From positions 1-51,787 of the forward strand of contig JBFXGO010000010.1 of NCBI GenBank assembly GCA_050239825.1: a stretch of DNA of 51,787 nucleotides, written 5' to 3'. The first letter of the stretch is position 1. Every line of letters starts with the position of its first letter. Position numbers and translations under genes: made by a program. This stretch comes from a bacterium. GTDB taxonomy: Bacteria > Hydrothermota > 32-111. Below, piece by piece: positions 1 to 15,119 of this stretch. The notes beneath the pieces are model-generated. The model saw nothing but the letters and a program-made list of their open reading frames with translations, had not been told where the DNA came from and made no database searches.

Positions 1-257
1 TTTATGAAGTTCGGATTTATCTTTATCCTATATTCATTCATGAAATATTCCATCGATGCTGTTTCAACATCATTTGTTTCAATTATGTTAGTTCCCGCAA
101 GCTCATAAATAAGATCTTTCATCTCATTCGTACCGCCGACTATCATCTCTCCATCATTTTCATTTCTCTTTGACCTCATAAAATCATCTACATTCTGATC
201 AAGAACTCTGTTTTTGTACATTGTGACATTGATTCTTTTTGTCAAATCAAAATCCAT
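1..257 (-). CDS. Partial CDS (runs off window); possible N-terminus of a DUF2201/VWA-associated metallopeptidase-like MoxR partner
   Basis: Manual translation from ATG at 257 (MDFDLTKRINV...ETASMEYFMNEYRIKINPNFI), open to position 1. AGAGG upstream; overlaps the stop of 247..1299. The TA...INPxF pattern resembles DUF2201 N-termini. Confidence 0.55.
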   Translation of the reverse strand, partial: MDFDLTKRINVTMYKNRVLDQNVDDFMRSKRNENDGEMIVGGTNEMKDLIYELAGTNIIETNDVETASMEYFMNEYRIKINPNFI

Positions 258-1299
258 TTGAACCTCTCTTCGGAAGGACAAGATATGCATAGTATGGCTC
301 ATCGTGACCCGTCACTCTCGCAATAGACATTGATCCATCCGGAAGATAATATTTTCCGGCGACAAACTTTGAATAGATGGCAGTAGCTTCCTCAGGGTCA
401 TCTATCAGAGTCGCATCCTTTGCAACATCCACATGAAACGGTTCATTGATTATGAAGTGCTTTTGTTTAATCGGCGGTCTCACGTTCTTTGCTATGCGCT
501 CAATGTTTTTGATTATGTAGCTCTTGGAAGGCACTTTCACTATGTATCTTGCTTCAAGGTGCGGCTTGGGAATGTAATCTGTTATGCTGTCCGTGTGAAA
601 AAGGAATCCCTCTTTGTCAAGCTTTTCAATGAAGTTGTCCGGAAAACTCCTGATAGCGTCATTCTGATAAAAATCACTTCCGTCGAAGGCAAAGTAAGCG
701 GGTCTGGAGTCATGTCTCGCATAGTATCTCCTGTCCGACATTGTTTTAAGCAGGTATTTGAGACTCTTCACTCTTGCACCTTTTATATCTCTCTCTCCTT
801 CAATTGCAATCACATACACAGCATCACAACAGCTTTTTACGAAGATTTTTCCTTCGCTTGAATTGTCATGAAGAACTACATCCTTTCTTTGAATGAGATT
901 CACTTCATTTATCATACCAAGTTCTTTTCCGGTTTCGTGAAACCCTCTGTTTTTCATGGTTTTCCTCTTTTCAAAGAAGTCCTCGCATTTTACAAGTAGT
1001 TCCGCATATTTTTTGTCCGAACTCAGCTTCTTCTGCTCACTTATGAAATTCATCAGTCCTCTTTTGTTTGAGTAAATGGCGGCTCCCTCCTTTATCATCT
1101 TCCTGTTTTTTTCCTTGACGCACATTTTCAGTTTGAAATGCTCATTCTTCGCATGATTTTTGAATCTGAAGTCGAACGAACCCAATCTCCCTTCAAACAT
1201 GAATAGATCGTCAATACTAACATCCGTTGTCTTCTCTTCGCACATGCTGACCTTGTTCTTGGAGTCATAATAAAATTCCAATAATCCCTTTACCTTCAT
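247..1299 (-). CDS. Hypothetical protein (350 aa) in MoxR operon
   Basis: Long ORF, AGGAGG RBS, tightly packed between co-oriented neighbours; no recognised family. Confidence 0.8.
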   Translation of the reverse strand: MKVKGLLEFYYDSKNKVSMCEEKTTDVSIDDLFMFEGRLGSFDFRFKNHAKNEHFKLKMCVKEKNRKMIKEGAAIYSNKRGLMNFISEQKKLSSDKKYAELLVKCEDFFEKRKTMKNRGFHETGKELGMINEVNLIQRKDVVLHDNSSEGKIFVKSCCDAVYVIAIEGERDIKGARVKSLKYLLKTMSDRRYYARHDSRPAYFAFDGSDFYQNDAIRSFPDNFIEKLDKEGFLFHTDSITDYIPKPHLEARYIVKVPSKSYIIKNIERIAKNVRPPIKQKHFIINEPFHVDVAKDATLIDDPEEATAIYSKFVAGKYYLPDGSMSIARVTGHDEPYYAYLVLPKRGSNGF

Positions 1300-1308
1300 T
1301 TTTCCTCC

Positions 1309-2664
1309 TTATAAAGAGCTTTCAATTTCCTTAACGAGGGCATCCCTCTCTCTCGCATCAATCTTTTCTCCCGGACGCTTGATGGATTCGCAGATGAATT
1401 CCGACATAATCATCTTCCAGTCATTTGCATCAATGCAGTATGAGGCGTAAAAAGAGTTGAATCCATTCGGCGGCTCTATCATGAGTTCATATATTGAATC
1501 CATCAACAGCTCATGCATCGTGCATGATATGTTAAGGTTCTTCTCTTGCATCAGGTTCAAAATCGCTTCGGCAACTTCCGCAAGAGAGGTTATGTCCTTT
1601 CTCTCCTTCGCTGTCTTGAACTCCTCAATGAACTTCTGCACTGTCTTGTCATTCTCAGGTCTCTCCCTCTTGCTGTTCTCCTTGATGAACTTTTCAGTTG
1701 TCTCTTTCATTGTCTTGCTGTTAAACACAAACTTCCTTTTGATCCCTGTCTTCATTGCATCTGTGATTTTTTCTCCGATGGCTTTTAGTTTTGTGTCGGA
1801 GATTCTTGACTCATTGACATTATGAGGGAGGGAGAACCTCAATGTTTCATTGACTCCCTCCCTCTCTTCCGTCAACCCGCACTTTTGCTCGATAAGAAGG
1901 CTCATTATCTTGTAATTCCTGAAGAGCATACCTATGCGTCTCCCATCAATCTGAAGGTTATCCTCTATGAGAATGTCTTTGGCTGATAGGATGAAATTCT
2001 GCGCTCTCTTTGTGAGATTATCATCTTCAAATCTCTCTGTCACATATCTGATTGTATCCTCTATGCTTTTCTTGGTGCTGTTGTTATGCGTATTTATTCT
2101 CTTCTCCCTTAAAAGCTTTGCATCATCATTGTTCTTTGCGCTTGCTATTTTAAGGATAACAGAGTCATCAAGCGTCTCTATTGAAGGCATCCTTATTATC
2201 GTGGCAAAGCGTCCAATGAGGGCTTCGTCAAGAGGCTCTGCTCCGGCATAGGAGAGGGGATTCATAGCGGCAAAGACATACTTAAGCGGTTCTACCCTCA
2301 CCCCCATCATTTTACGGGAACGAATGACCTCCAACCATTTGTTCTGCATTGATACTTGGGCTCTCGATATTTCATCAATCAGAATGAACTCCTTGTCCCA
2401 GATTGTCATGGGTGTCTTTATGTATTCTATGGTTTTGTTTTTTACTGACTCAGGGTCGGGAAATCCGACTATGTCCTCAAACATTGCTCTTGATGCGTCA
2501 TAAGCATGGTAATTCAAATGAAGGGCTACTGCAAGGTTTTCGCACAATGCTGTCTTGGCTGACCCATGCGCTCCAATGAGAAGCACAGGGTCACCCGAGA
2601 CAATACCGCAGAGAATTCCGAGTTCTATTGAATTGTAACCGTAAATTCCTATCTCTTCAAACAT
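1309..2664 (-). CDS. MoxR/RavA-family AAA+ ATPase
   Basis: Walker A GAHGSAKT, Walker B ILIDEISRA, AAMNP sensor-1 and PLDEALIGRF arginine-finger region; AGGAGG RBS. Confidence 0.88.
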   Translation of the reverse strand: MFEEIGIYGYNSIELGILCGIVSGDPVLLIGAHGSAKTALCENLAVALHLNYHAYDASRAMFEDIVGFPDPESVKNKTIEYIKTPMTIWDKEFILIDEISRAQVSMQNKWLEVIRSRKMMGVRVEPLKYVFAAMNPLSYAGAEPLDEALIGRFATIIRMPSIETLDDSVILKIASAKNNDDAKLLREKRINTHNNSTKKSIEDTIRYVTERFEDDNLTKRAQNFILSAKDILIEDNLQIDGRRIGMLFRNYKIMSLLIEQKCGLTEEREGVNETLRFSLPHNVNESRISDTKLKAIGEKITDAMKTGIKRKFVFNSKTMKETTEKFIKENSKRERPENDKTVQKFIEEFKTAKERKDITSLAEVAEAILNLMQEKNLNISCTMHELLMDSIYELMIEPPNGFNSFYASYCIDANDWKMIMSEFICESIKRPGEKIDARERDALVKEIESSL

Positions 2665-2681
2665 GATACCTCCTTTTTCAA

Positions 2682-3560
2682 TTAACTTATGAGCGGATAC
2701 TTTTCAGGATTCAGCTTGAAATTCTCTGTTTCAAGCACTTCAATCGATAGAAGGAACCTGTTCTCATAACTTACAGAACTTCTAAGCTCAATGGTGTTCT
2801 CGTAGAAGGCATTTCTCATGAGAGAGTCCCTGTTTCTTTCAGCAAAACTTCTGATGAAGTGCGCTGTCCTCTCATTCATCTCCTTGAATGTGATGACCCA
2901 TTGTTCCTCTACCCTATCAAGCTTTATGATTATCCAACCCTCGCTTACCGCTCTTTTCTCAAGCTCATTTTCACTCAGATTCTTTATTATTTCACCATCC
3001 ATCTTCTTATTTGACAACAGATACATCTCCTTCAACCAATCCATGTAATTGTTTCTGCTCACTCTCTCATAACGTTGGAAGATGAAATTCTTTGAACTTA
3101 TGAGTATTGTATCCGGCGCGAGAAAGGGAAACTTCTTGTACTGATATTTTAGATTTTCGATTACTCCTTTGATTTCTTTTTTTGTAAGGGCAAATTTTCT
3201 CCTGTATGTCATGGGAGTTCTCGATGGCTTTAGCTCATAGTCGAGATATATGGAGAAGTGGAACAGACCTTTTTCATCCTTACCAAGATAGCGGAAGAAA
3301 AGGCACGGCTCTATGAATGCTTTGTAATCCCTGCTCTTCTTTTCATTGAGCGCATTATCAAAAAATTCAACAAGTTCGCAGAGTTCATTTGTCTGAAGGG
3401 CTGGGTCTGTTTTCCTTATGCAAGACCCCTTTTCATCGACATCAACATGGACAGTCAACCATTCGCTGTCAAAGGAGAACCTCTCCTCCGGATAGGCATA
3501 ACCGGCTATTGTGATTGTGATTTTAGTGTTTTTTTCACATTTAAGCGTTAGTCCGTTCAT
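2682..3560 (-). CDS. Protein with N-terminal WapI-like (immunity-family) domain and unknown C-terminal domain
   Basis: GYAYPE..FDSEWL..DPALQTNEL..FIEPCLFF matches the pattern I recall for WapI-family proteins; AGGAGG RBS. Confidence 0.6.
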   Translation of the reverse strand: MNGLTLKCEKNTKITITIAGYAYPEERFSFDSEWLTVHVDVDEKGSCIRKTDPALQTNELCELVEFFDNALNEKKSRDYKAFIEPCLFFRYLGKDEKGLFHFSIYLDYELKPSRTPMTYRRKFALTKKEIKGVIENLKYQYKKFPFLAPDTILISSKNFIFQRYERVSRNNYMDWLKEMYLLSNKKMDGEIIKNLSENELEKRAVSEGWIIIKLDRVEEQWVITFKEMNERTAHFIRSFAERNRDSLMRNAFYENTIELRSSVSYENRFLLSIEVLETENFKLNPEKYPLIS

Positions 3561-3699
3561 ACTTTTCCTCCTTTGTTTATGTTATGCCGCGCCTCCTTGG
3601 TCAATTGAGGCGAACCACCACCCGCTCAAAAAGAGAGACAGAATGAACATTAGACTTCAAATCACTTGTATTTAACAAATTATTAAGAATACCGAGAGA

Positions 3700-3746
3700 A
3701 TTATACATATATTCTTTATATCTTGCGAATATTAACTTATTCGCAA
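3700..3746 (-). promoter_or_regulatory. Putative promoter (TATAAT at 3700-3705) with palindromic operator TTGCGAATA-N6-TATTCGCAA (3723-3746) over the -35 region
   Basis: Perfect 9-bp-arm inverted repeat read directly; -10 consensus downstream on the minus strand. Confidence 0.6.
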
Positions 3747-3817
3747 CGGTCTGGGTGTGGAAAATGTGTGATGGCACTTCATAATTCATGATTTCTCCCG
3801 TAATTAAATATTTTGAA

Positions 3818-3940
3818 TTCTCTTTCGACCTTCCGCTACTTACATTGCGTAATGCAATTTGTAGCAGAGCTCCTTACTCATCCCCGCAGTAGAATTTTCT
3901 ATCTTAAAAATAGAATCATGCGGGAAGAGAAAAGAGAGAA
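3818..3940 (-). ncRNA. Candidate structured RNA / 5' leader (multi-stem)
   Basis: Stems CCCGCA/TGCGGG (3883-3888/3919-3924) enclosing TTCTAT/ATAGAA; GCTAC/GTAGC (3835-3839/3861-3865) enclosing ATTGC/GCAAT; closing UCUCUUUU/GAAAGAGA stem. Lies just downstream of a consensus promoter. Confidence 0.4.
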
Positions 3941-3960
3941 GCTTTTTTAGAACTGAAGAT

Positions 3961-4009
3961 ATTATAACACAAAAATAGGAAATTGTCAAGCGAATAATTG
4001 AATATTCGC
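3961..4009 (-). promoter_or_regulatory. Consensus sigma70 promoter TTGACA-N17-TATAAT with adjacent operator GCGAATA-N6-TATTCGC (3990-4009)
   Basis: -35 at 3984-3989, -10 at 3961-3966, exact consensus with 17-bp spacer; the palindrome abuts the -35. Confidence 0.8.
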
Positions 4010-4017
4010 AATAGATT

Positions 4018-5469
4018 TTACTTGAACCTACCTAACTGACGGGAGAGTTCCCTGATTCTTTCTGAGATGGTATCAACGGATTTATTGAGTTTTTCTACTG
4101 TCTCTTCAATTTTCTGTGAGGGACTCAGGTTCGCATCAGGAAGATAATTTGATATGTTGAGGTTATAGTCATTGACTGCTATGGCATCCCTTGACACATT
4201 CCTGCCTGCATCATCAATTCTCCTTTTCAGTTCATAAGATGTCAGATTCTGTTCTTTTGTCAAAGCCACCATTCTCTTGAAGTTGGAGAAGAATACTTCT
4301 TTTTTGTTATTGTTCATCCTATCCCACACCATCATCACAGGATCAACATTTGCCCGCGAGTATGTCTCTCCGTAAATTGAATATGCCCTCGACAAAAGCC
4401 CTTCATCAACAAGGTTCTTCCTCAATTCGTAATAATTTTTGTAAGTCAGAAATGAAAAATTATCTATTATGTACGAAATGGACTTTTCATCCATGATTTC
4501 AAGAAGAAAATAATAGATATAATTCTCTTTTGGTATGTTGCTCTTTTTTTCAAGAATTTTTACGAATGATTTTAGAATCGTCACTGACTCATCATCAAGA
4601 AAATGCGCCTTTTCATCTGTGTCAATGTCAATAATGTTACCAAAAACAAGCTCGTATTTCTGCAAGCATCCTTTTTTGTCTGTAAAAGTATTTTTGTACC
4701 ATGGCTCTTTTATGCAGTTTACCTCAACATTTCTGTATCCGAGAAACCATGTCTTCATGAAAAAATAGGCAGGTTCATTGTTGTTGATTCCATTGAAGAA
4801 GAAGACTGCGCTTTTATTTGCATCCCTGCATTTTCTAACGATTCCGCTATACAATGATTCATTGGAGAATGACAGGTCATAGACAAGAACTTTGCTACCA
4901 AATCTTTTAAGCTCATTGCTTATTCCGGAGAGCAATTCACTTTCTAGCTCTTCCGACATTTCAGACCTGAGATACCTGGTTCCCATTCCCGTAAAATCCT
5001 TTGAGGGTTCATACTTGTTTTTTAGGTAGCGTGAAAACCCGTTTAATGTATTGAATTCTTCCTTTGAATTGATTGCATCTATCACTGTCTTCAATGACTT
5101 TTTCTTCAACCGTCTCTCCGTCCTGTCAAACTCGCCTGCTTCGCCTCTTTCAAACATGCATTGAAGTGATTTAAACATCTCGTTATTTTCAAAGAGATAT
5201 TTTATCTCATTATTAATTCTGCTTAAAATGTCTTTCTCTGACTTTGCAAAAGCAAAAAAGTCAAAATCAGGATTAAGCACTATGGAACTTTCAGAATTTC
5301 CCTTCAGATAAACATATTTGAGAAAGAAGGTTTTTGCCAGAAAATCATTCTTTCTCATCCAAAACCTCGCCTCAGAGTCCATTGACCTGCGGATCTTCCG
5401 CTCAAACTCGAACTCACTCTCTCGTTTTTTCGGCGGTTCGTCTCTAAAAAACTTTTTAGATAGAGTCAT
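4018..5469 (-). CDS. Degenerate Type I HsdM-like (N6-MTase fold) protein, predicted catalytically inactive
   Basis: HsdM hallmarks (C-terminal AIAVNDYNLNISNYL plus coiled tail; KGCLQKYELVF). Motif I reads VYDLSFSNESL instead of YDPxxGSG, and motif IV reads FGNIID instead of ANPPF. Start abuts the hsdS-like stop. Confidence 0.7.
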   Translation of the reverse strand: MTLSKKFFRDEPPKKRESEFEFERKIRRSMDSEARFWMRKNDFLAKTFFLKYVYLKGNSESSIVLNPDFDFFAFAKSEKDILSRINNEIKYLFENNEMFKSLQCMFERGEAGEFDRTERRLKKKSLKTVIDAINSKEEFNTLNGFSRYLKNKYEPSKDFTGMGTRYLRSEMSEELESELLSGISNELKRFGSKVLVYDLSFSNESLYSGIVRKCRDANKSAVFFFNGINNNEPAYFFMKTWFLGYRNVEVNCIKEPWYKNTFTDKKGCLQKYELVFGNIIDIDTDEKAHFLDDESVTILKSFVKILEKKSNIPKENYIYYFLLEIMDEKSISYIIDNFSFLTYKNYYELRKNLVDEGLLSRAYSIYGETYSRANVDPVMMVWDRMNNNKKEVFFSNFKRMVALTKEQNLTSYELKRRIDDAGRNVSRDAIAVNDYNLNISNYLPDANLSPSQKIEETVEKLNKSVDTISERIRELSRQLGRFK

Positions 5470-6075
5470 TCATTCCTCTTCCATCATGTTTACTATGTTT
5501 GAGGAGAGTGTTGAAAGAAGGTTCCTGCATCCCTCAATCTCCCTGTTTATATCCCTGTATATTGCAATAAGATTGCTGATTTTTGTTTGTTTTGCTTCAT
5601 CAAGAAGGGGAACTGTTATGTTGCGAAGTATCTCTTTCGTGAGAACAAGCATAGTTGAGGCATTGGAACTTTTGATTATCTCATTTGCGGCTCTTCCCTG
5701 CCTTATGTAAAGGTCAAGAATCTCCGAAGATATGAATTTTTTGAAATCTTCCTTAATTCTGATTGCAATGACATTTGAGTTTATCAGATATCCGTCCCTG
5801 TCAATGTCAACAACCGCGCTCTTTATCGACCTTCCGCGAGAATTGACTACTACATCACCCTCAATTACCTTGCAGTTGACTATCCTCTCTCCAACATCCT
5901 TTATCTTTTGAAAATCTCCTGTGAAAAAACCGTCACTATCAATGTTTGAAATTGAAATTATCTTTACTTCCCGTACTGAACTCGCGAAAGAGGATGAAAA
6001 TTCATCCTTGTAGTTGTTTATGTTGAGTCCGACAAAGACTTCTGCTATTTCACCTATACTCTTTTTTTCTACCAT
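5470..6075 (-). CDS. Half-size (single TRD) Type I HsdS-like specificity subunit
   Basis: IGEIAEVFVG..ISISNI..EGDVVVNSRG..NSNVIAIR..ITVPLLDEAKQTKI, the typical TRD plus conserved helix. Start reassigned to ATG at 6075, 6 nt after the -10. Confidence 0.82.
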   Translation of the reverse strand: MVEKKSIGEIAEVFVGLNINNYKDEFSSSFASSVREVKIISISNIDSDGFFTGDFQKIKDVGERIVNCKVIEGDVVVNSRGRSIKSAVVDIDRDGYLINSNVIAIRIKEDFKKFISSEILDLYIRQGRAANEIIKSSNASTMLVLTKEILRNITVPLLDEAKQTKISNLIAIYRDINREIEGCRNLLSTLSSNIVNMMEEE

Positions 6076-6081
6076 TCTCAT

Positions 6082-6110
6082 ATAATATTCACTTATTCGC
6101 CAAAAGTCAA
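6082..6110 (-). promoter_or_regulatory. Leaderless promoter TTGACT-N17-TATTAT containing an operator-like GCGAATAAGTGAATATT
   Basis: -35 at 6105-6110, -10 at 6082-6087. The spacer region matches 16/17 nt of the 3723-3746 operator. Confidence 0.7.
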
Positions 6111-6173
6111 GCATCTTTTCACATATTTGACGAATATCTTAATATTGACTATTTATAAAACTCAATTGTGATT

Positions 6174-6782
6174 ATGACTATGAAAAATATATTCTTAATA
6201 TTCATTTGTCTGGCGGCACTCTTTATGTCGGCAGAGGAGTCTGACACCTCAGTTGTATATTTCACTTCAGATATATCTTCAGAAGGGCTTTTGAAAGTTT
6301 ACAGAATGTTGGGTGTTACTGACACGGAAAAGGTTGCTCTCAAAGTTCACTTCGAAGAGGACGGAAATCAGAATTACATAAAGCATGTTCTTTATGAAGG
6401 GATAGTAAAAGCTACGAAGGGCACATTTGTGGAGACGAATGTTCTTTATGTAAGCAGAAGGAATTTTACCAACACGCACATCGCACTGGCTAAGGAGCAT
6501 GGGTTCGGATATGCGCCCATAGACATTCTCGATTCCGAGGGGGAGATGGAGATTGAGAATGAGAATCCTAAATATTTCAAGAAAGTCAAAATCGGCAAAG
6601 AAATGGACAATTATAGAATGTTCGTCATACTCTCCCATTTCAAAGGGCACGGACTTGCAGGTTTCGGCGGAGCGATAAAGAATATCTCAATGGGGTTCGC
6701 CTCTCCAAGCGGAAAGAAGGAGATTGAATTTGCCTATGACCGCAAAACGGGAAGTATAAATTACAAAATCATCAACATATGA
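6174..6782 (+). CDS. DUF362-family protein with signal peptide, shortened
   Basis: VYFTSDIS, KVALKVHFEE, ETNVLY, SHFKGHGLAGFGGAIKNISMGFAS motifs; only ~200 aa. Confidence 0.78.
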   Translation: MTMKNIFLIFICLAALFMSAEESDTSVVYFTSDISSEGLLKVYRMLGVTDTEKVALKVHFEEDGNQNYIKHVLYEGIVKATKGTFVETNVLYVSRRNFTNTHIALAKEHGFGYAPIDILDSEGEMEIENENPKYFKKVKIGKEMDNYRMFVILSHFKGHGLAGFGGAIKNISMGFASPSGKKEIEFAYDRKTGSINYKIINI

Positions 6783-7721
6783 TTACTGCCTTAAGATCAA
6801 GCCTATCTTCACTTCCAATCCGCTGTCCAAAAAATCTGTAAGCACCAGCCTGAATCCAGACTCCACATATGTCGAAAGATTGTAAGTGTTCATCATCAAC
6901 ATTCCAAGGCGGGGTTTAAAGAATATACCTCCAATTGATGCGTTCGGGTACATTTCTTTTCTGTTGTAAACATACTCTACTCCAATATCGCCGCCCCAGT
7001 AAGGCGAGAAAGTCGTCGGTTTTGCTATATAGATATATCCCGCGCTTAACGCAATTGATGCTGCCACAGGCAATTCAAAATTAATGTCCATTCTCGCGTT
7101 CTTGGAGACTTCCATAAGAATTGATCCGCTTAGCATCAGCACCTTCCTGTAATCGCCGGCATAGAGTCCATCTGTGGTCAAAGGAGATGTCCACATGTAT
7201 CCGAATGCACCTGTGAATCCCATAAGTCCGCTTCTTCTGTCAGATAATTCGCTTTTTATTTCATCCTGGCTTAAAAGCCCTACTTCTACAAGCTGGTCAA
7301 CAGTCTTATTCTGAGTAAAAACCAGCACAGCCCTTTTACATACCGGTTTCAATTCTTCCGGATTTTCCAGTGCGAATTCTTCGTTTCTTTCAAATTCAAG
7401 AGTCTTGAAATTGAAAACGCTCATTCTCATGATGAATCTTTCGCCGAAAACATAGTATTTGAATACTATCATTCTGTCATACTCTAGCGTACCGTATCTC
7501 TCGACAAGCAACTGCTTGTCATTCCAAATGTTCTGAATGTCATCGTCAAAGAGAACCATGGAGCTTATTTTGTATTTGGAAAGGTCATCAGAAAAAAGGT
7601 TAAGAAATGACTTTCTCTGAACTTCATCTATTACAGTTGAAGCGTAATCCACCAGAAGAACTCTTTCCGCGGATAAGCCCAAAAAGACAAAAAGCACTAA
7701 TATCAATGAAATTTTTTTCAT
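6783..7721 (-). CDS. Hypothetical exported / outer-membrane protein (C-terminal beta-barrel-like)
   Basis: Signal peptide MKKISLILVLFVFLGLSA; alternating hydrophobic strands in the C-terminal half. Confidence 0.7.
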   Translation of the reverse strand: MKKISLILVLFVFLGLSAERVLLVDYASTVIDEVQRKSFLNLFSDDLSKYKISSMVLFDDDIQNIWNDKQLLVERYGTLEYDRMIVFKYYVFGERFIMRMSVFNFKTLEFERNEEFALENPEELKPVCKRAVLVFTQNKTVDQLVEVGLLSQDEIKSELSDRRSGLMGFTGAFGYMWTSPLTTDGLYAGDYRKVLMLSGSILMEVSKNARMDINFELPVAASIALSAGYIYIAKPTTFSPYWGGDIGVEYVYNRKEMYPNASIGGIFFKPRLGMLMMNTYNLSTYVESGFRLVLTDFLDSGLEVKIGLILRQ

Positions 7722-13089: not shown

Positions 13090-14415
13090 CTATGGTTTTG
13101 TTTTTTCGGTTAAAATGGTCAAGTCATATATCCTTGAACGGATTTCGGAATTTATCTTGTCTAATCTGTCAAGAAGGTCTGCGGCATTCTCCTTTGGTAC
13201 AGGCGGAGTTGAAGATATGTACTGAGAAACTGAAAGATTGAATCCATTCTCGGCAATTTTTTGATTTGAAACGAGCCTTTTTTTGCTCTCCTTGTCAAAC
13301 CTGAATACTGTCATATCCTTTATCTCGCGGCTTTTATTCATGTTTATCGAAACAAACGCCGCATCAACAGCTTTTCCGGTAAATACATTCATCGGAAGAT
13401 TCTCAATGTGGTAGAGTATGTCATTCTCTACAAGATACCTTCGCAAGTCGCTATCTCCTGCGGTGAGAAAAGAATATGGAACAATCATGTTCAGAATTCC
13501 ATCTTCTTTGAGTGATGAAAGAAGAAAACTGTATATAAGGTTTTTATATTCATTCAAATTCCCCACTTTGACAGTTAGAAGCTCTTGCAGTCTCTTCATT
13601 TTCTTTCTGTCAGGATTGTCATCAAAATAAAGAATCGGCAGAGCCGCAATCAAATCAAATTTCTTCAGTTTACCGTTTCCATCGAGAATCGGTTCATCCA
13701 AAAAAGATTTCTTTTTAATGCAAAAATCCATCTCAATGCAATCCTTGAAAAAATTATCCAGAAAAAGAAAAACTGTAAACTCATCATCAAAACACATGTT
13801 GCCATAGATTTTCACGGACTTCATCTCTCCTGATTCCAACACACTGGGAATTTCATACATTATGTCGCTCTTTGAAATAACAGGATTATATATTTCCTGA
13901 TTTTCCCTGTTGTTTGAGAATCTGAAAAGCATATTCCCTGAATGGCCGTCAATCTCCTCTTTGTCAATCTCCCCGGCATTCTTCCACAGGTAATATTGTT
14001 TCAGCTGTTTCAAAAGAACCCGCATGCTCTCAGGGATTTTCCTGACTTCAACATTCTTCTGTATGTCTGTCAAAATATCAAGAAAACCCTTTATGATTTT
14101 GTTCCTGCTCTCTTTGGTTCGTCCGATTTCAGTAAAATCAGAGCGTTTCACAAGCATATCCATTAAAGGATTGACGCTCTTGAAGTGAGACAGAAGAGAA
14201 TTTACCTCTTTGTCAAGATTTTCATTCAACCTCATCAAGTAAAAAAAATCTTTATTTGATTGGAAGTATTTTTTCTTGTTTTCATTTGAAAATGACAGAA
14301 GCTGAATGAGCATCAGGGAAAGGATGTAAAAGACATTATCTCTATCATCAGAACTCCTCAGGGTCTCCCAAAGTCTTCTTGATATTTTCCGCATCTCACT
14401 CAGATTCACTTTCAT
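13090..14415 (-). CDS. Second degenerate Type I HsdM-like protein, predicted catalytically inactive
   Basis: LWETLRS N-terminus, IGRTKESRNKII, PILDGNGKLKKFDLI, LRRYLVENDIL..LPMNVF, KIAENGFNLSVSQYI. Motif I reads IYNPVISKSD and motif IV reads AALPILY. Start at 14415 or 14394. Confidence 0.8.
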   Translation of the reverse strand: MKVNLSEMRKISRRLWETLRSSDDRDNVFYILSLMLIQLLSFSNENKKKYFQSNKDFFYLMRLNENLDKEVNSLLSHFKSVNPLMDMLVKRSDFTEIGRTKESRNKIIKGFLDILTDIQKNVEVRKIPESMRVLLKQLKQYYLWKNAGEIDKEEIDGHSGNMLFRFSNNRENQEIYNPVISKSDIMYEIPSVLESGEMKSVKIYGNMCFDDEFTVFLFLDNFFKDCIEMDFCIKKKSFLDEPILDGNGKLKKFDLIAALPILYFDDNPDRKKMKRLQELLTVKVGNLNEYKNLIYSFLLSSLKEDGILNMIVPYSFLTAGDSDLRRYLVENDILYHIENLPMNVFTGKAVDAAFVSINMNKSREIKDMTVFRFDKESKKRLVSNQKIAENGFNLSVSQYISSTPPVPKENAADLLDRLDKINSEIRSRIYDLTILTEKTKP

Positions 14416-15025
14416 ACTTCTCCAGATATTTTCCTTCAATTGTCTTTGCAAGCGTTAGAAATGTGTTTCTCTGCTCCACAAAAAGATTTTTTATCTCATT
14501 CATCGCCTTTATGGAATTCAACATTCTCTCTCTCTCTTCGGCATCTTCGAAAAGAGGCACTTCAAGCAAGCTTAGAACCCTTTGGTTGAGGTTGACTACT
14601 CCTTCCGACGACTCTGAAAGTTTTTTTAGCGCATTCTCTCCATATACAGACCTGAGAAAGAAATTGAGTATTTCGCTCGGGTAATCCGCCTTCTCTTTCA
14701 TCTGTATGCATATAAGATTTGAAGATATTAATGTGTTGTTTTTTACAGACATCGGCACAATAGCGGTTTTCAGTTTGGTTCCCCTCGAACTTATTAGAAT
14801 GTTATTGTATTTTACAAGATACTTGGTAACTCTGCTTGAATCATCAAGTTTAATCTCCATAAGTGATTTAGATATATTGGAATCATCGTCAATGTCCGAA
14901 ATGTTTATTATCCTATACTCTCTCTTTGGATTTTTTTCAAAAGGAGAATCAGGCAAATTTTTTTCTTTGGGAAGCACGATTCCTGTAAACATATCAGCTA
15001 TGTCAGTTAAAAGAATTTTCTTCAT
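14396..15025 (-). CDS. Second half-size (single TRD) Type I HsdS-like subunit
   Basis: LTDIADMFTG..INISDI..NNILISSRGTKLK..SSNLICI..LEVPL; paralogous to 5470..6075. Confidence 0.82.
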   Translation of the reverse strand: MKKILLTDIADMFTGIVLPKEKNLPDSPFEKNPKREYRIINISDIDDDSNISKSLMEIKLDDSSRVTKYLVKYNNILISSRGTKLKTAIVPMSVKNNTLISSNLICIQMKEKADYPSEILNFFLRSVYGENALKKLSESSEGVVNLNQRVLSLLEVPLFEDAEERERMLNSIKAMNEIKNLFVEQRNTFLTLAKTIEGKYLEKYESESE

Positions 15026-15031
15026 ATCATT

Positions 15032-15060
15032 ATAATAGGCATAGAAAACGCAAAAGTCAA
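15032..15060 (-). promoter_or_regulatory. Leaderless promoter TTGACT-N17-TATTAT
   Basis: -35 at 15055-15060, -10 at 15032-15037, ATG 6 nt later; same layout as 6082-6110. Confidence 0.7.
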
Positions 15061-15119
15061 GTATATACTTAAATATAGGAATATCTGATAATTCACATTT
15101 TTCACCCCCCGCCGCTCTG

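Follow-up and report, generated by a model that had tools for sequence, protein, structure and literature searches.

In M.AhdI and in the truncated HsdS subunits of EcoR124I and EcoDXXI, each specificity (S) chain carries one target recognition domain (TRD), and the chains dimerise through their helical regions and recognise a symmetric bipartite target. Restriction-modification (R-M) circuits run by C-proteins are autoregulated through symmetric operators at or near the -35 element of the regulated unit. The Ronin system, as described in the accessible part of the preprint by Silas et al. (bioRxiv 10.1101/2023.04.06.535777), combines hsdS and hsdM, without hsdR, with RonA, a membrane effector of 61 amino acids (aa); its methyltransferase activity is dispensable (F287G in the NPPF motif), HsdMS is proposed to be a decoy that restrains RonA until it is engaged by Ocr, ArdA or Aop1, and the upstream non-coding region is essential for a reason left unexplained. 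The same part of the preprint describes PrrC-EcoprrI, in which a Type I complex keeps a latent effector in check and the effector is freed once a phage product blocks that complex. MoxR-vWA ternary conflict systems, in the sections available of the work on them (Kaur et al. 2020 eLife, PMC7159879; PMC12839542), encode in one operon a MoxR AAA+ ATPase, a vWA-type partner with a peptidase-like domain and a fast-evolving third component, and M.SsoII and M.Ecl18kI are DNA methyltransferase polypeptides that control the promoters of their own systems, according to the passages available of PMC3978073 and PMC3695355. The present analysis concerns a stretch of 51,787 nucleotides (nt) of contig JBFXGO010000010.1 (hereafter the window), from a bacterium of the phylum Hydrothermota, and a cassette at its start in which a half-length HsdS and an HsdM homologue lacking catalytic motifs, here the S/M pair, precede a MoxR operon, with a palindromic operator-like site at the promoters of both.

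The source genome (G000) comprises 2,115,113 bases in 67 contigs, has 39.8% G+C and is 98.97% complete. The window is the first 51,787 bases of its contig, and the cassette lies on the minus strand and exits the contig at base 1. In transcription order, it consists of genes for half-HsdS and the HsdM-like protein, a 457-nt gap, genes for a WapI-like protein, the MoxR ATPase and a 350-aa protein, and the first 85 codons of a last gene, which is cut at base 1 because the window begins at the contig end. The pair of half-hsdS and pseudo-hsdM genes was found directly upstream of the operon, where the sequence-only reading of the window had placed it. The features, all on the minus strand, are:

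6082..6110, minus strand: promoter of the S/M unit, with -35 TTGACT (6110-6105), a 17-nt spacer and -10 TATTAT (6087-6082); scan score 10/12
6081..6100, minus strand: near-operator GCGAATA-AGTGAA-TATTATA, between the -35 and -10 of the S/M promoter
5470..6075, minus strand: half-HsdS with a single TRD, 201 aa from the ATG at 6075, assigned by Pfam and PADLOC
4018..5469, minus strand: 483-aa HsdM homologue that lacks motifs I and IV and is predicted to be inactive; begins directly at the S stop
3990..4009, minus strand: operator 1, GCGAATA-ttcaat-TATTCGC, exact; begins 8 nt past the M stop and abuts the P1 -35
3961..3989, minus strand: promoter P1, TTGACA-17-TATAAT with TG ahead of the -10; scan score 12/12; conserved block
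3725..3744, minus strand: operator 2, GCGAATA-agttaa-TATTCGC, exact; 20/20 bases the same in a sister genome
3700..3729, minus strand: promoter-like site P2, TTCGCA-18-TATAAT, its -35 inside the right half of operator 2; scan score 10/12
2682..3560, minus strand: WapI-like protein, 292 aa; Pfam WapI E 6.1e-20; confined to the genus of the window
1309..2664, minus strand: MoxR-type AAA+ ATPase, 451 aa; AAA_5 3.6e-12, AAA_3 5.6e-11 and bpMoxR 1.9e-7, all above cut-off
247..1299, minus strand: middle protein of the MoxR triple, 350 aa; without a family; lies between the MoxR and HExxH genes wherever seen
3..257, minus strand: 5' part of the HExxH/vWA-like last gene, 85 aa, ending at the contig edge

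The locus is a composite, lineage-restricted conflict-type cassette of two units. The first is an HsdR-less Type I methyltransferase module that is predicted to be dead for methylation, in which half-HsdS is modelled as pairing into a symmetric dimer that would carry two inactive HsdM subunits. The second is a triple of MoxR, 350-aa and HExxH/vWA-like proteins, which is also found alone in more distant genomes.

The exact palindrome GCGAATA-N6-TATTCGC has only two copies in the 2,115,113-base genome, both in the cassette (4009-3990 and 3744-3725), and the same half-sites at any other spacer from 0 to 14 occur nowhere genome-wide. Eight matches with up to 3 mismatches are present in the window, against a mean of 2.35 and a maximum of 7 in 100 shuffles. 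The top 3 of the 22 promoter-like sites in a scan of positions 1..6400 are the three adjoining the palindromes: P1 abuts operator 1, P2 overlaps operator 2, and the S/M promoter encloses the near-copy at 6100-6081, which places the three sites as the sequence-only reading had them. The left half of the near-copy is perfect, and its 3 mismatches all fall in the right half, which doubles as the -10. The shorter core GAATA-N6-TATTC occurs at 11 sites in the genome versus about 9.4 expected from half-site counts, and at 6-19 sites in five other genomes versus 3-7 for a control pattern. This core does not form a genome-wide or regulon motif; with the exact form confined to the cassette and the core at background frequency, the suspicion that the palindrome belongs to an unrelated global regulator is not borne out. 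Avoidance of the core, as would be expected if unmethylated sites were attacked, was considered and rejected, given that the genome counts lie at or above the control.

Synonymous sites between the genome of the window and that of a sister organism (G001) are saturated (pS, the proportion of synonymous differences, 0.58-0.78), which makes conserved non-coding blocks informative. The S promoter retains more than 30 consecutive invariant columns in three genomes, while the sequence upstream of it diverges beyond alignment. The P1 block is also conserved in the sister genome, with one spacer change in operator 1, and operator 2 there directly abuts TATAAT; the leader between the P1 block and operator 2 is not conserved. 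Across the copies, half-sites are kept and spacers differ, and the placement of every copy against a promoter hexamer is constant. Taken at the level of sequence, these patterns support the palindrome as a real, locus-specific, operator-like element. The only small open reading frame (ORF) of the gap between the M and WapI-like genes (3789..3601, 62 aa), considered as a possible counterpart of ronA, has nothing conserved in the sister genome beyond the operator bases, and an Rfam scan of 1..7000 returned 2 chance-level matches, none of them in the leader.

Several further palindrome-like sequences were recorded. The sister genomes do not share a near-site that lies at 6147-6132, ahead of the S promoter, and it was treated as a chance match. 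On another contig of the same genome (C54:1404-1429, locus L172), TTGACT is directly followed by GCGAATAAGTGAATATTCGT, a one-mismatch operator whose spacer is that of the S-promoter copy. Convergent genes for a DUF6880 protein and a DUF234 ATPase flank it, there is no ORF downstream, and no counterpart was found at the matching place in G001. A core site on G001 contig C49 has the same spacer as the C54 copy; it falls within coding sequence, shows no alignment to C54, and was treated as chance. The G001 leader between operator 2 and the WapI-like gene (L008 12290-12445) contains short imperfect tandem repeats (ctcactaacctta... units), and none are present in the window leader.

The distribution of the dead M was surveyed in 61 relatives and then in 272 genomes of the phylum. 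The full-length family is present in only two genera of one family: the genus of the window (G000, G001 and G002, the last cut by a contig end) and a second genus, g5, where it occurs in three of six genomes. The g5 loci encode S, dead M, MoxR, 344-aa, 428-aa and 149-aa proteins and have no WapI-like gene, and, compared with the window proteins, S is 36-38% identical, M 26% and MoxR about 39%. Ahead of MoxR, each of the three loci has a TTGACT-17-TATAAT promoter with GAATA-TTTTAA-TATTC 3 nt upstream of its TTGACT, and each has a core variant between the -35 and -10 of the S promoter (TTGACA-caattt-GAATA-ttaaaa-TATTA-T). The 5+5 core, the 6-nt spacer and both promoter positions are kept between the two genera, and each g5 carrier genome has exactly one exact core site inside the cassette locus. 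With regard to co-variation of TRD and operator, both operator-bearing genera share the same core, GAATA-N6-TATTC. Only S, M, MoxR, the 350-aa protein and the HExxH protein are common to both. Searches with both M and MoxR show the six-gene g5 cassette, S/M included, to be present or absent as a unit (3/6 genomes). Its end (L009 14545-14680, L011 14765-14900) adjoins, by eye, a tRNA-like sequence and a convergent gene whose N-terminus is gyrB-like, which suggests that the cassette is gained or lost as a unit at a tRNA-flanked spot.

MoxR orthologues (E <= 1e-15) were detected in 16 of the 272 genomes, and the core motif is absent from all seven related MoxR loci inspected that lack an intact S/M pair (0/7), so the operator was not seen to persist without S/M. 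One of these, from a third genus of the same family (G007), retains a half-S gene, an M cut to 371 aa without its C-terminal part, 850 nt of non-coding sequence, MoxR and a 350-type gene; the core motif is absent there as well. The other six belong to other families and contain MoxR and a HExxH-type gene, with a gene of ~350 aa between them in the four long enough for ORF listing. No S or M was found in these six by tblastn at E <= 1e-3, although two of the contigs extend only 1.5-1.8 kb upstream of MoxR, so that a more distant S is possible there, and none had a core motif; their genomes contain no dead-M family member at E <= 1e-8. The occurrence of the triple in loci without S/M indicates that the MoxR triple is free-standing and that S/M and the operator are a joint add-on in one bacterial family. 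In one S/M-less locus (L164, G076 contig C64, reverse strand 1008-3870), genes for a further AAA+ ATPase and a further HExxH protein were seen by eye directly upstream of the triple; these doubled genes could be a tandem duplication of the module.

Half-HsdS matches Pfam Methylase_S (E 6.5e-6, above cut-off), its best PADLOC match is Specificity_I (E 3.1e-14), and it contains one TRD. The longest S ORF spans 6114..5470, but the stretch on the 6114 side is the promoter, and a start at 6114 is judged spurious because in one sister genome no ATG precedes the S promoter; the start is most likely at 6075 from the sequence comparison, and the transcript is possibly leaderless. Dimerisation, claimed in the sequence-only reading from known single-TRD subunits, is upheld at the level of prediction. 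The homodimer scored an ipSAE of 0.56 (three runs) against 0.00 for the best of 3 controls, a mark reached by 20/30 proteins solved as pairs and by 1/23 solved as single chains; the runs share >= 95% of contacts, partner predicted local distance difference test (pLDDT) is 83, and the interface runs along the C-terminal helix. S is accordingly modelled as a symmetric homodimer, a prediction that may stem from likeness to solved full-length two-TRD S subunits and that is silent on DNA.

The HsdM-like protein matches Pfam N6_Mtase below cut-off (E 1.2e-3, 18.6 bits vs 20.4), and the profile of the dead-M family matches solved HsdM chains (3lkd 1.1e-14; EcoR124 M 4e-9) in the C-terminal third (positions 326-487), which includes the region contacting S. 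In an alignment with five relatives that keep both motifs, motif I (DPxCGSG) is replaced by DLSFSNES in the window and by IPYFKRGE in the second genus, and motif IV (NPPF) by NIID and DIID, respectively; the pseudo-HsdM label given earlier is thus apt, and M looks catalytically dead as judged from its sequence. Relative to G001, the proportions of nonsynonymous (pN) and synonymous differences are 0.16 and 0.78 for S, and 0.195 and 0.717 for M, a pattern indicating that both genes are kept under purifying selection although M is without motifs I and IV. No hsdR was detected in the genome of the window (TIGR00348, 0 matches at E <= 0.01; a control search was positive in 9 of 14 named genomes), nor any S subunit beyond the two in the window. 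The family is rare: a HMMER pass over 1.84 billion representatives returned 684 proteins at E <= 0.001 and only 2 at E <= 1e-30, the cluster of the window protein itself and that of the second genus. A word-index search of 5.8 billion clusters returned 4 proteins, the window's own included; another of them, P0005, is 52% identical. Scans of genome and metagenome contigs gave weak matches to the C-terminal part only (18-36% identity), and a scan of viral contigs found no relatives.

The second S subunit belongs to a paralogous pair on the minus strand, consisting of a half-HsdS (15025..14396, 209 aa) and a dead HsdM (14451..13090, 453 aa) that matches N6_Mtase at 2.9e-10, yet has lost motifs I and IV (NPVISKSD and LPIL in the alignment). 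The pair is kept in all three genomes of the genus and has no MoxR gene beside it. By eye, a conserved AT-rich near-palindrome lies just upstream of the -35 of its S promoter (minus strand, ~15055-15075). The G001 copy (L008 ~4510-4530) reads TATACTTAAGTATA, with one mismatch in the window, and the G002 copy (L012 ~2240-2262) has more mismatches than that of the window; the placement resembles that of operator 1 at P1, but the element has no spacer.

Among the candidate binders of the operator-like site, a predicted S2M2 complex is tentatively favoured, at somewhat less than even odds. It is favoured because, of the five proteins that the two operator-bearing genera share, S and M form the sole sequence-specific DNA-binding module, because the site sits inside the promoter of the S/M unit itself, a signature of autoregulation, because the twofold symmetry of the site fits a half-S dimer, and because the operator co-occurs with intact S/M and is missing where S/M is absent or decayed.

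A number of observations weigh against S2M2 as the binder. The half-site under selection in the genus of the window is 7 bp. One TRD usually reads 3-5 bp, and a 7-bp half-site is long for a TRD and typical of helix-turn-helix (HTH) dimers. The paralogous S/M promoter, TTGACT-17-TATTAT, has no GAATA-N6-TATTC or bipartite palindrome in the window or in two orthologues, which indicates that operator control is not general to the protein family. The sample is small and related (7 loci in one family, two operator-bearing genera), and the co-occurrence counts are not independent because the genomes are related. Operator 1 sits on the upstream side of the -35, where activators bind as well, and regulation could be of either sign. 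Finally, G001 and G002 contain a third exact 20-mer copy, within the last 50 codons of the last gene of the operon, and in both genomes a gene for a weakly HTH-like 187-aa protein lies just past the operon. Of the earlier proposal that S/M is an operator-binding regulator, a real, conserved, locus-specific site and a predicted symmetric S stand, whereas the paralogous promoter has no such site, and the premise that no HTH regulator lies nearby does not hold, having arisen because the contig stops short of the HTH-like gene's place.

The last gene is whole in G001 (locus L008), where it encodes 471 aa, and the 85 aa of the window are 72% identical to its first 85; the remainder was not found in the assembly of the window. 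The full sister protein has weak matches only (DUF2201_N E 0.037; Peptidase_M48 E 0.021) and no vWA model match. The G002 copy is 95.5% identical to that of G001, and HExxH (CHEILH) and DVSGS motifs were seen in it by eye. The label DUF2201-like, under which the gene was first described, was replaced by HExxH/vWA-like, of which the vWA part is a provisional assignment from the DxSGS motif and the weak matches.

The third operator copy reads as operator 2 in reverse complement. In G001, a -35-like TTGCAA comes 2 nt beyond it, and ~115 nt separate the copy from the start of the 187-aa gene; the copy and the gene, of 185-187 aa, span L008 17188-17885 in G001 and L170 3306-4056 in G002. This arrangement would fit a conventional repressor as the binder, namely the 187-aa protein with an N-terminus like a divergent XRE-type HTH, in which case S/M would act at the protein level as a sensor or partner of the MoxR machine. 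Half-sites of 7 bp with 13 bp between their centres suit an HTH dimer. The G002 homologue has matches to HTH_3 (E 0.055) and HTH_31 (E 0.29), both below threshold; the language-model neighbours are HTH_3 clusters (0.87-0.88) and the ten best named matches belong to one clan, values below 0.9 in the atlas serving as leads only. The AlphaFold2 (AF2) model (mean pLDDT 65) has four short helices in residues 4-59, an N-terminus of pLDDT 35-66, and no PDB fold match at E <= 0.001, and its C-terminal domain has no known fold, so that the model would neither confirm nor exclude an HTH. The G001 and G002 copies are only 56% identical, although the adjoining 471-aa proteins are 95.5% identical.

The distribution of the 187-aa gene argues in the other direction. 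It was not found in the genome of the window, though the assembly breaks exactly at its expected place, and the protein has no match at E <= 1 in any of the three g5 carrier genomes, which keep the core at the same positions. The 149-aa product of the last g5 gene is unrelated (hhalign probability 0.4%); it has no family, its atlas scores (0.79-0.83) are at noise level, and it shows no DNA-binding signal. If the 187-aa protein were the binder in the genus of the window, g5 would need another protein to recognise that core at the corresponding places, which is possible but less economical. Binding by the 187-aa protein is thus rather doubtful, although it is the strongest alternative to S2M2.

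Past the operon in G002, a gene pair of DUF6922 and AbiEii-like type lies ~2 kb downstream (L170 5984-6876), and a similar-looking pair was seen by eye on contig C54 of G000 (L172 3252-4129). C54 may be the neighbour of the broken end of the window, and the region may be a defence island.

A second alternative is that another factor binds, encoded elsewhere or present as the 350-aa protein, the HExxH protein or the tail of MoxR, and that S/M takes no part in control at the DNA. Operators in bacteria are for the most part the targets of dedicated regulators, and the 350-aa protein, which has no Pfam, PADLOC or NCBIfam match and whose AF2 model (mean pLDDT 62) has no PDB fold match at E <= 0.001, lacks an assigned fold, as do large parts of the other cassette proteins. 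The confinement of the operator-like site to the cassette in each genome, however, argues for a binder encoded at the locus, and the 350-aa, HExxH and MoxR proteins are also present in the seven loci without the operator, which makes this explanation unlikely. That the palindromes work as RNA hairpins, either as a terminator behind M or as structure in the leader, is highly improbable, and the proposal fails: the two exact copies do form hairpins (-8.5 and -9.7 kcal/mol; z-scores of about -3.7 to -4.0), and operator 1, 8 nt past the M stop, is called terminator-like on the other strand, but no hairpin forms from the g5 element (-3.2 kcal/mol, z -1.0) or the S-promoter copy (-1.3 kcal/mol), operator 1 is upstream of P1 and outside any transcript started there, and conserved half-sites with variable spacers at fixed positions relative to promoter hexamers speak against it.

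If S2M2 is the binder, its occupation of the spacer and -10 of its own promoter would repress its own synthesis and create negative feedback, and its position against or over the -35 of P1 and P2 would hold down the MoxR operon. A very strong promoter would in this way be restrained before a potentially harmful MoxR/peptidase module. Release might occur by titration of S/M, with a phage DNA mimic competing for the DNA groove; this step, already put forward in the sequence-only reading, is a weaker inference than the others, with a published parallel in the accessible account of Ronin. The complete scheme, in which a Type I methyltransferase without catalysis is re-used as a transcription factor, a half-S dimer and two dead M reading the operator, repressing themselves, and silencing the MoxR/vWA-peptidase module until released by a phage DNA mimic, is distinctly unlikely to hold in every part. 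If true, it would constitute a transcriptional form of decoy immunity in a genome without a Type I restriction enzyme. In the open-access and bioRxiv literature searched, supplements aside, no report was found of a MoxR operon with a Type I S/M pair joined to it, or of a dead HsdM as a regulator. Should S2M2 read the operator, it would be the first Type I specificity/modification complex turned into a pure DNA-binding regulator within that literature, and even with a small HTH protein as the binder, the tight and conserved association between a dead Type I methylase and a MoxR triple would be undescribed there.

Among the known systems, M.AhdI and the truncated EcoR124I and EcoDXXI enzymes methylate DNA, whereas the M of the cassette is without its S-adenosylmethionine (SAM) and catalytic motifs and has no R partner in the genome. 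In comparison with C-protein circuits, no C-protein-type gene (a small HTH_3 controller) is present in the window or the g5 loci, and the 187-aa gene of the sister genomes lies outside the regulated unit and is weakly HTH-like. The MoxR of the cassette passes the bpMoxR model, as in MoxR-vWA ternary systems, but no match of its 350-aa partner to VMAP, iSTAND, FtsH or beta-propeller, the described kinds of third component, came up in the searches made. No link of such systems to Type I S/M was found in the passages available, and the term 'HsdS' is absent from the main text of PMC7159879. If S2M2 reads the operator, the poorly understood MoxR-vWA conflict systems would gain a defined input and a promoter switch, testable with a 20-bp oligonucleotide. 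M.SsoII and M.Ecl18kI, in the passages available, use an extra N-terminal regulatory region and stay active, whereas here the target-recognition apparatus itself would read the operator and catalysis appears lost. EcoprrI, as the preprint text at hand describes it, is a complete and active R-M enzyme that exerts control by protein contact. As far as the accessible part of the Ronin preprint extends, the two systems are alike in tying an HsdR-less Type I S/M pair to an effector module that is not a nuclease. They differ in that the M of the cassette has lost motifs I and IV by evolution and not through experiment, that S is a single-TRD half, that the linked module is a MoxR/350-aa/HExxH-vWA-like triple in place of a 61-aa membrane protein, and that control is proposed at promoters via a defined operator and not through protein sequestration; for the present cassette, a trigger of the Ocr, ArdA or Aop1 kind is a proposal. 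A cassette in which S2M2 reads the operator would be, after Ronin, a second and mechanistically different HsdR-less Type I sensor of a cell-autonomous defence effector.

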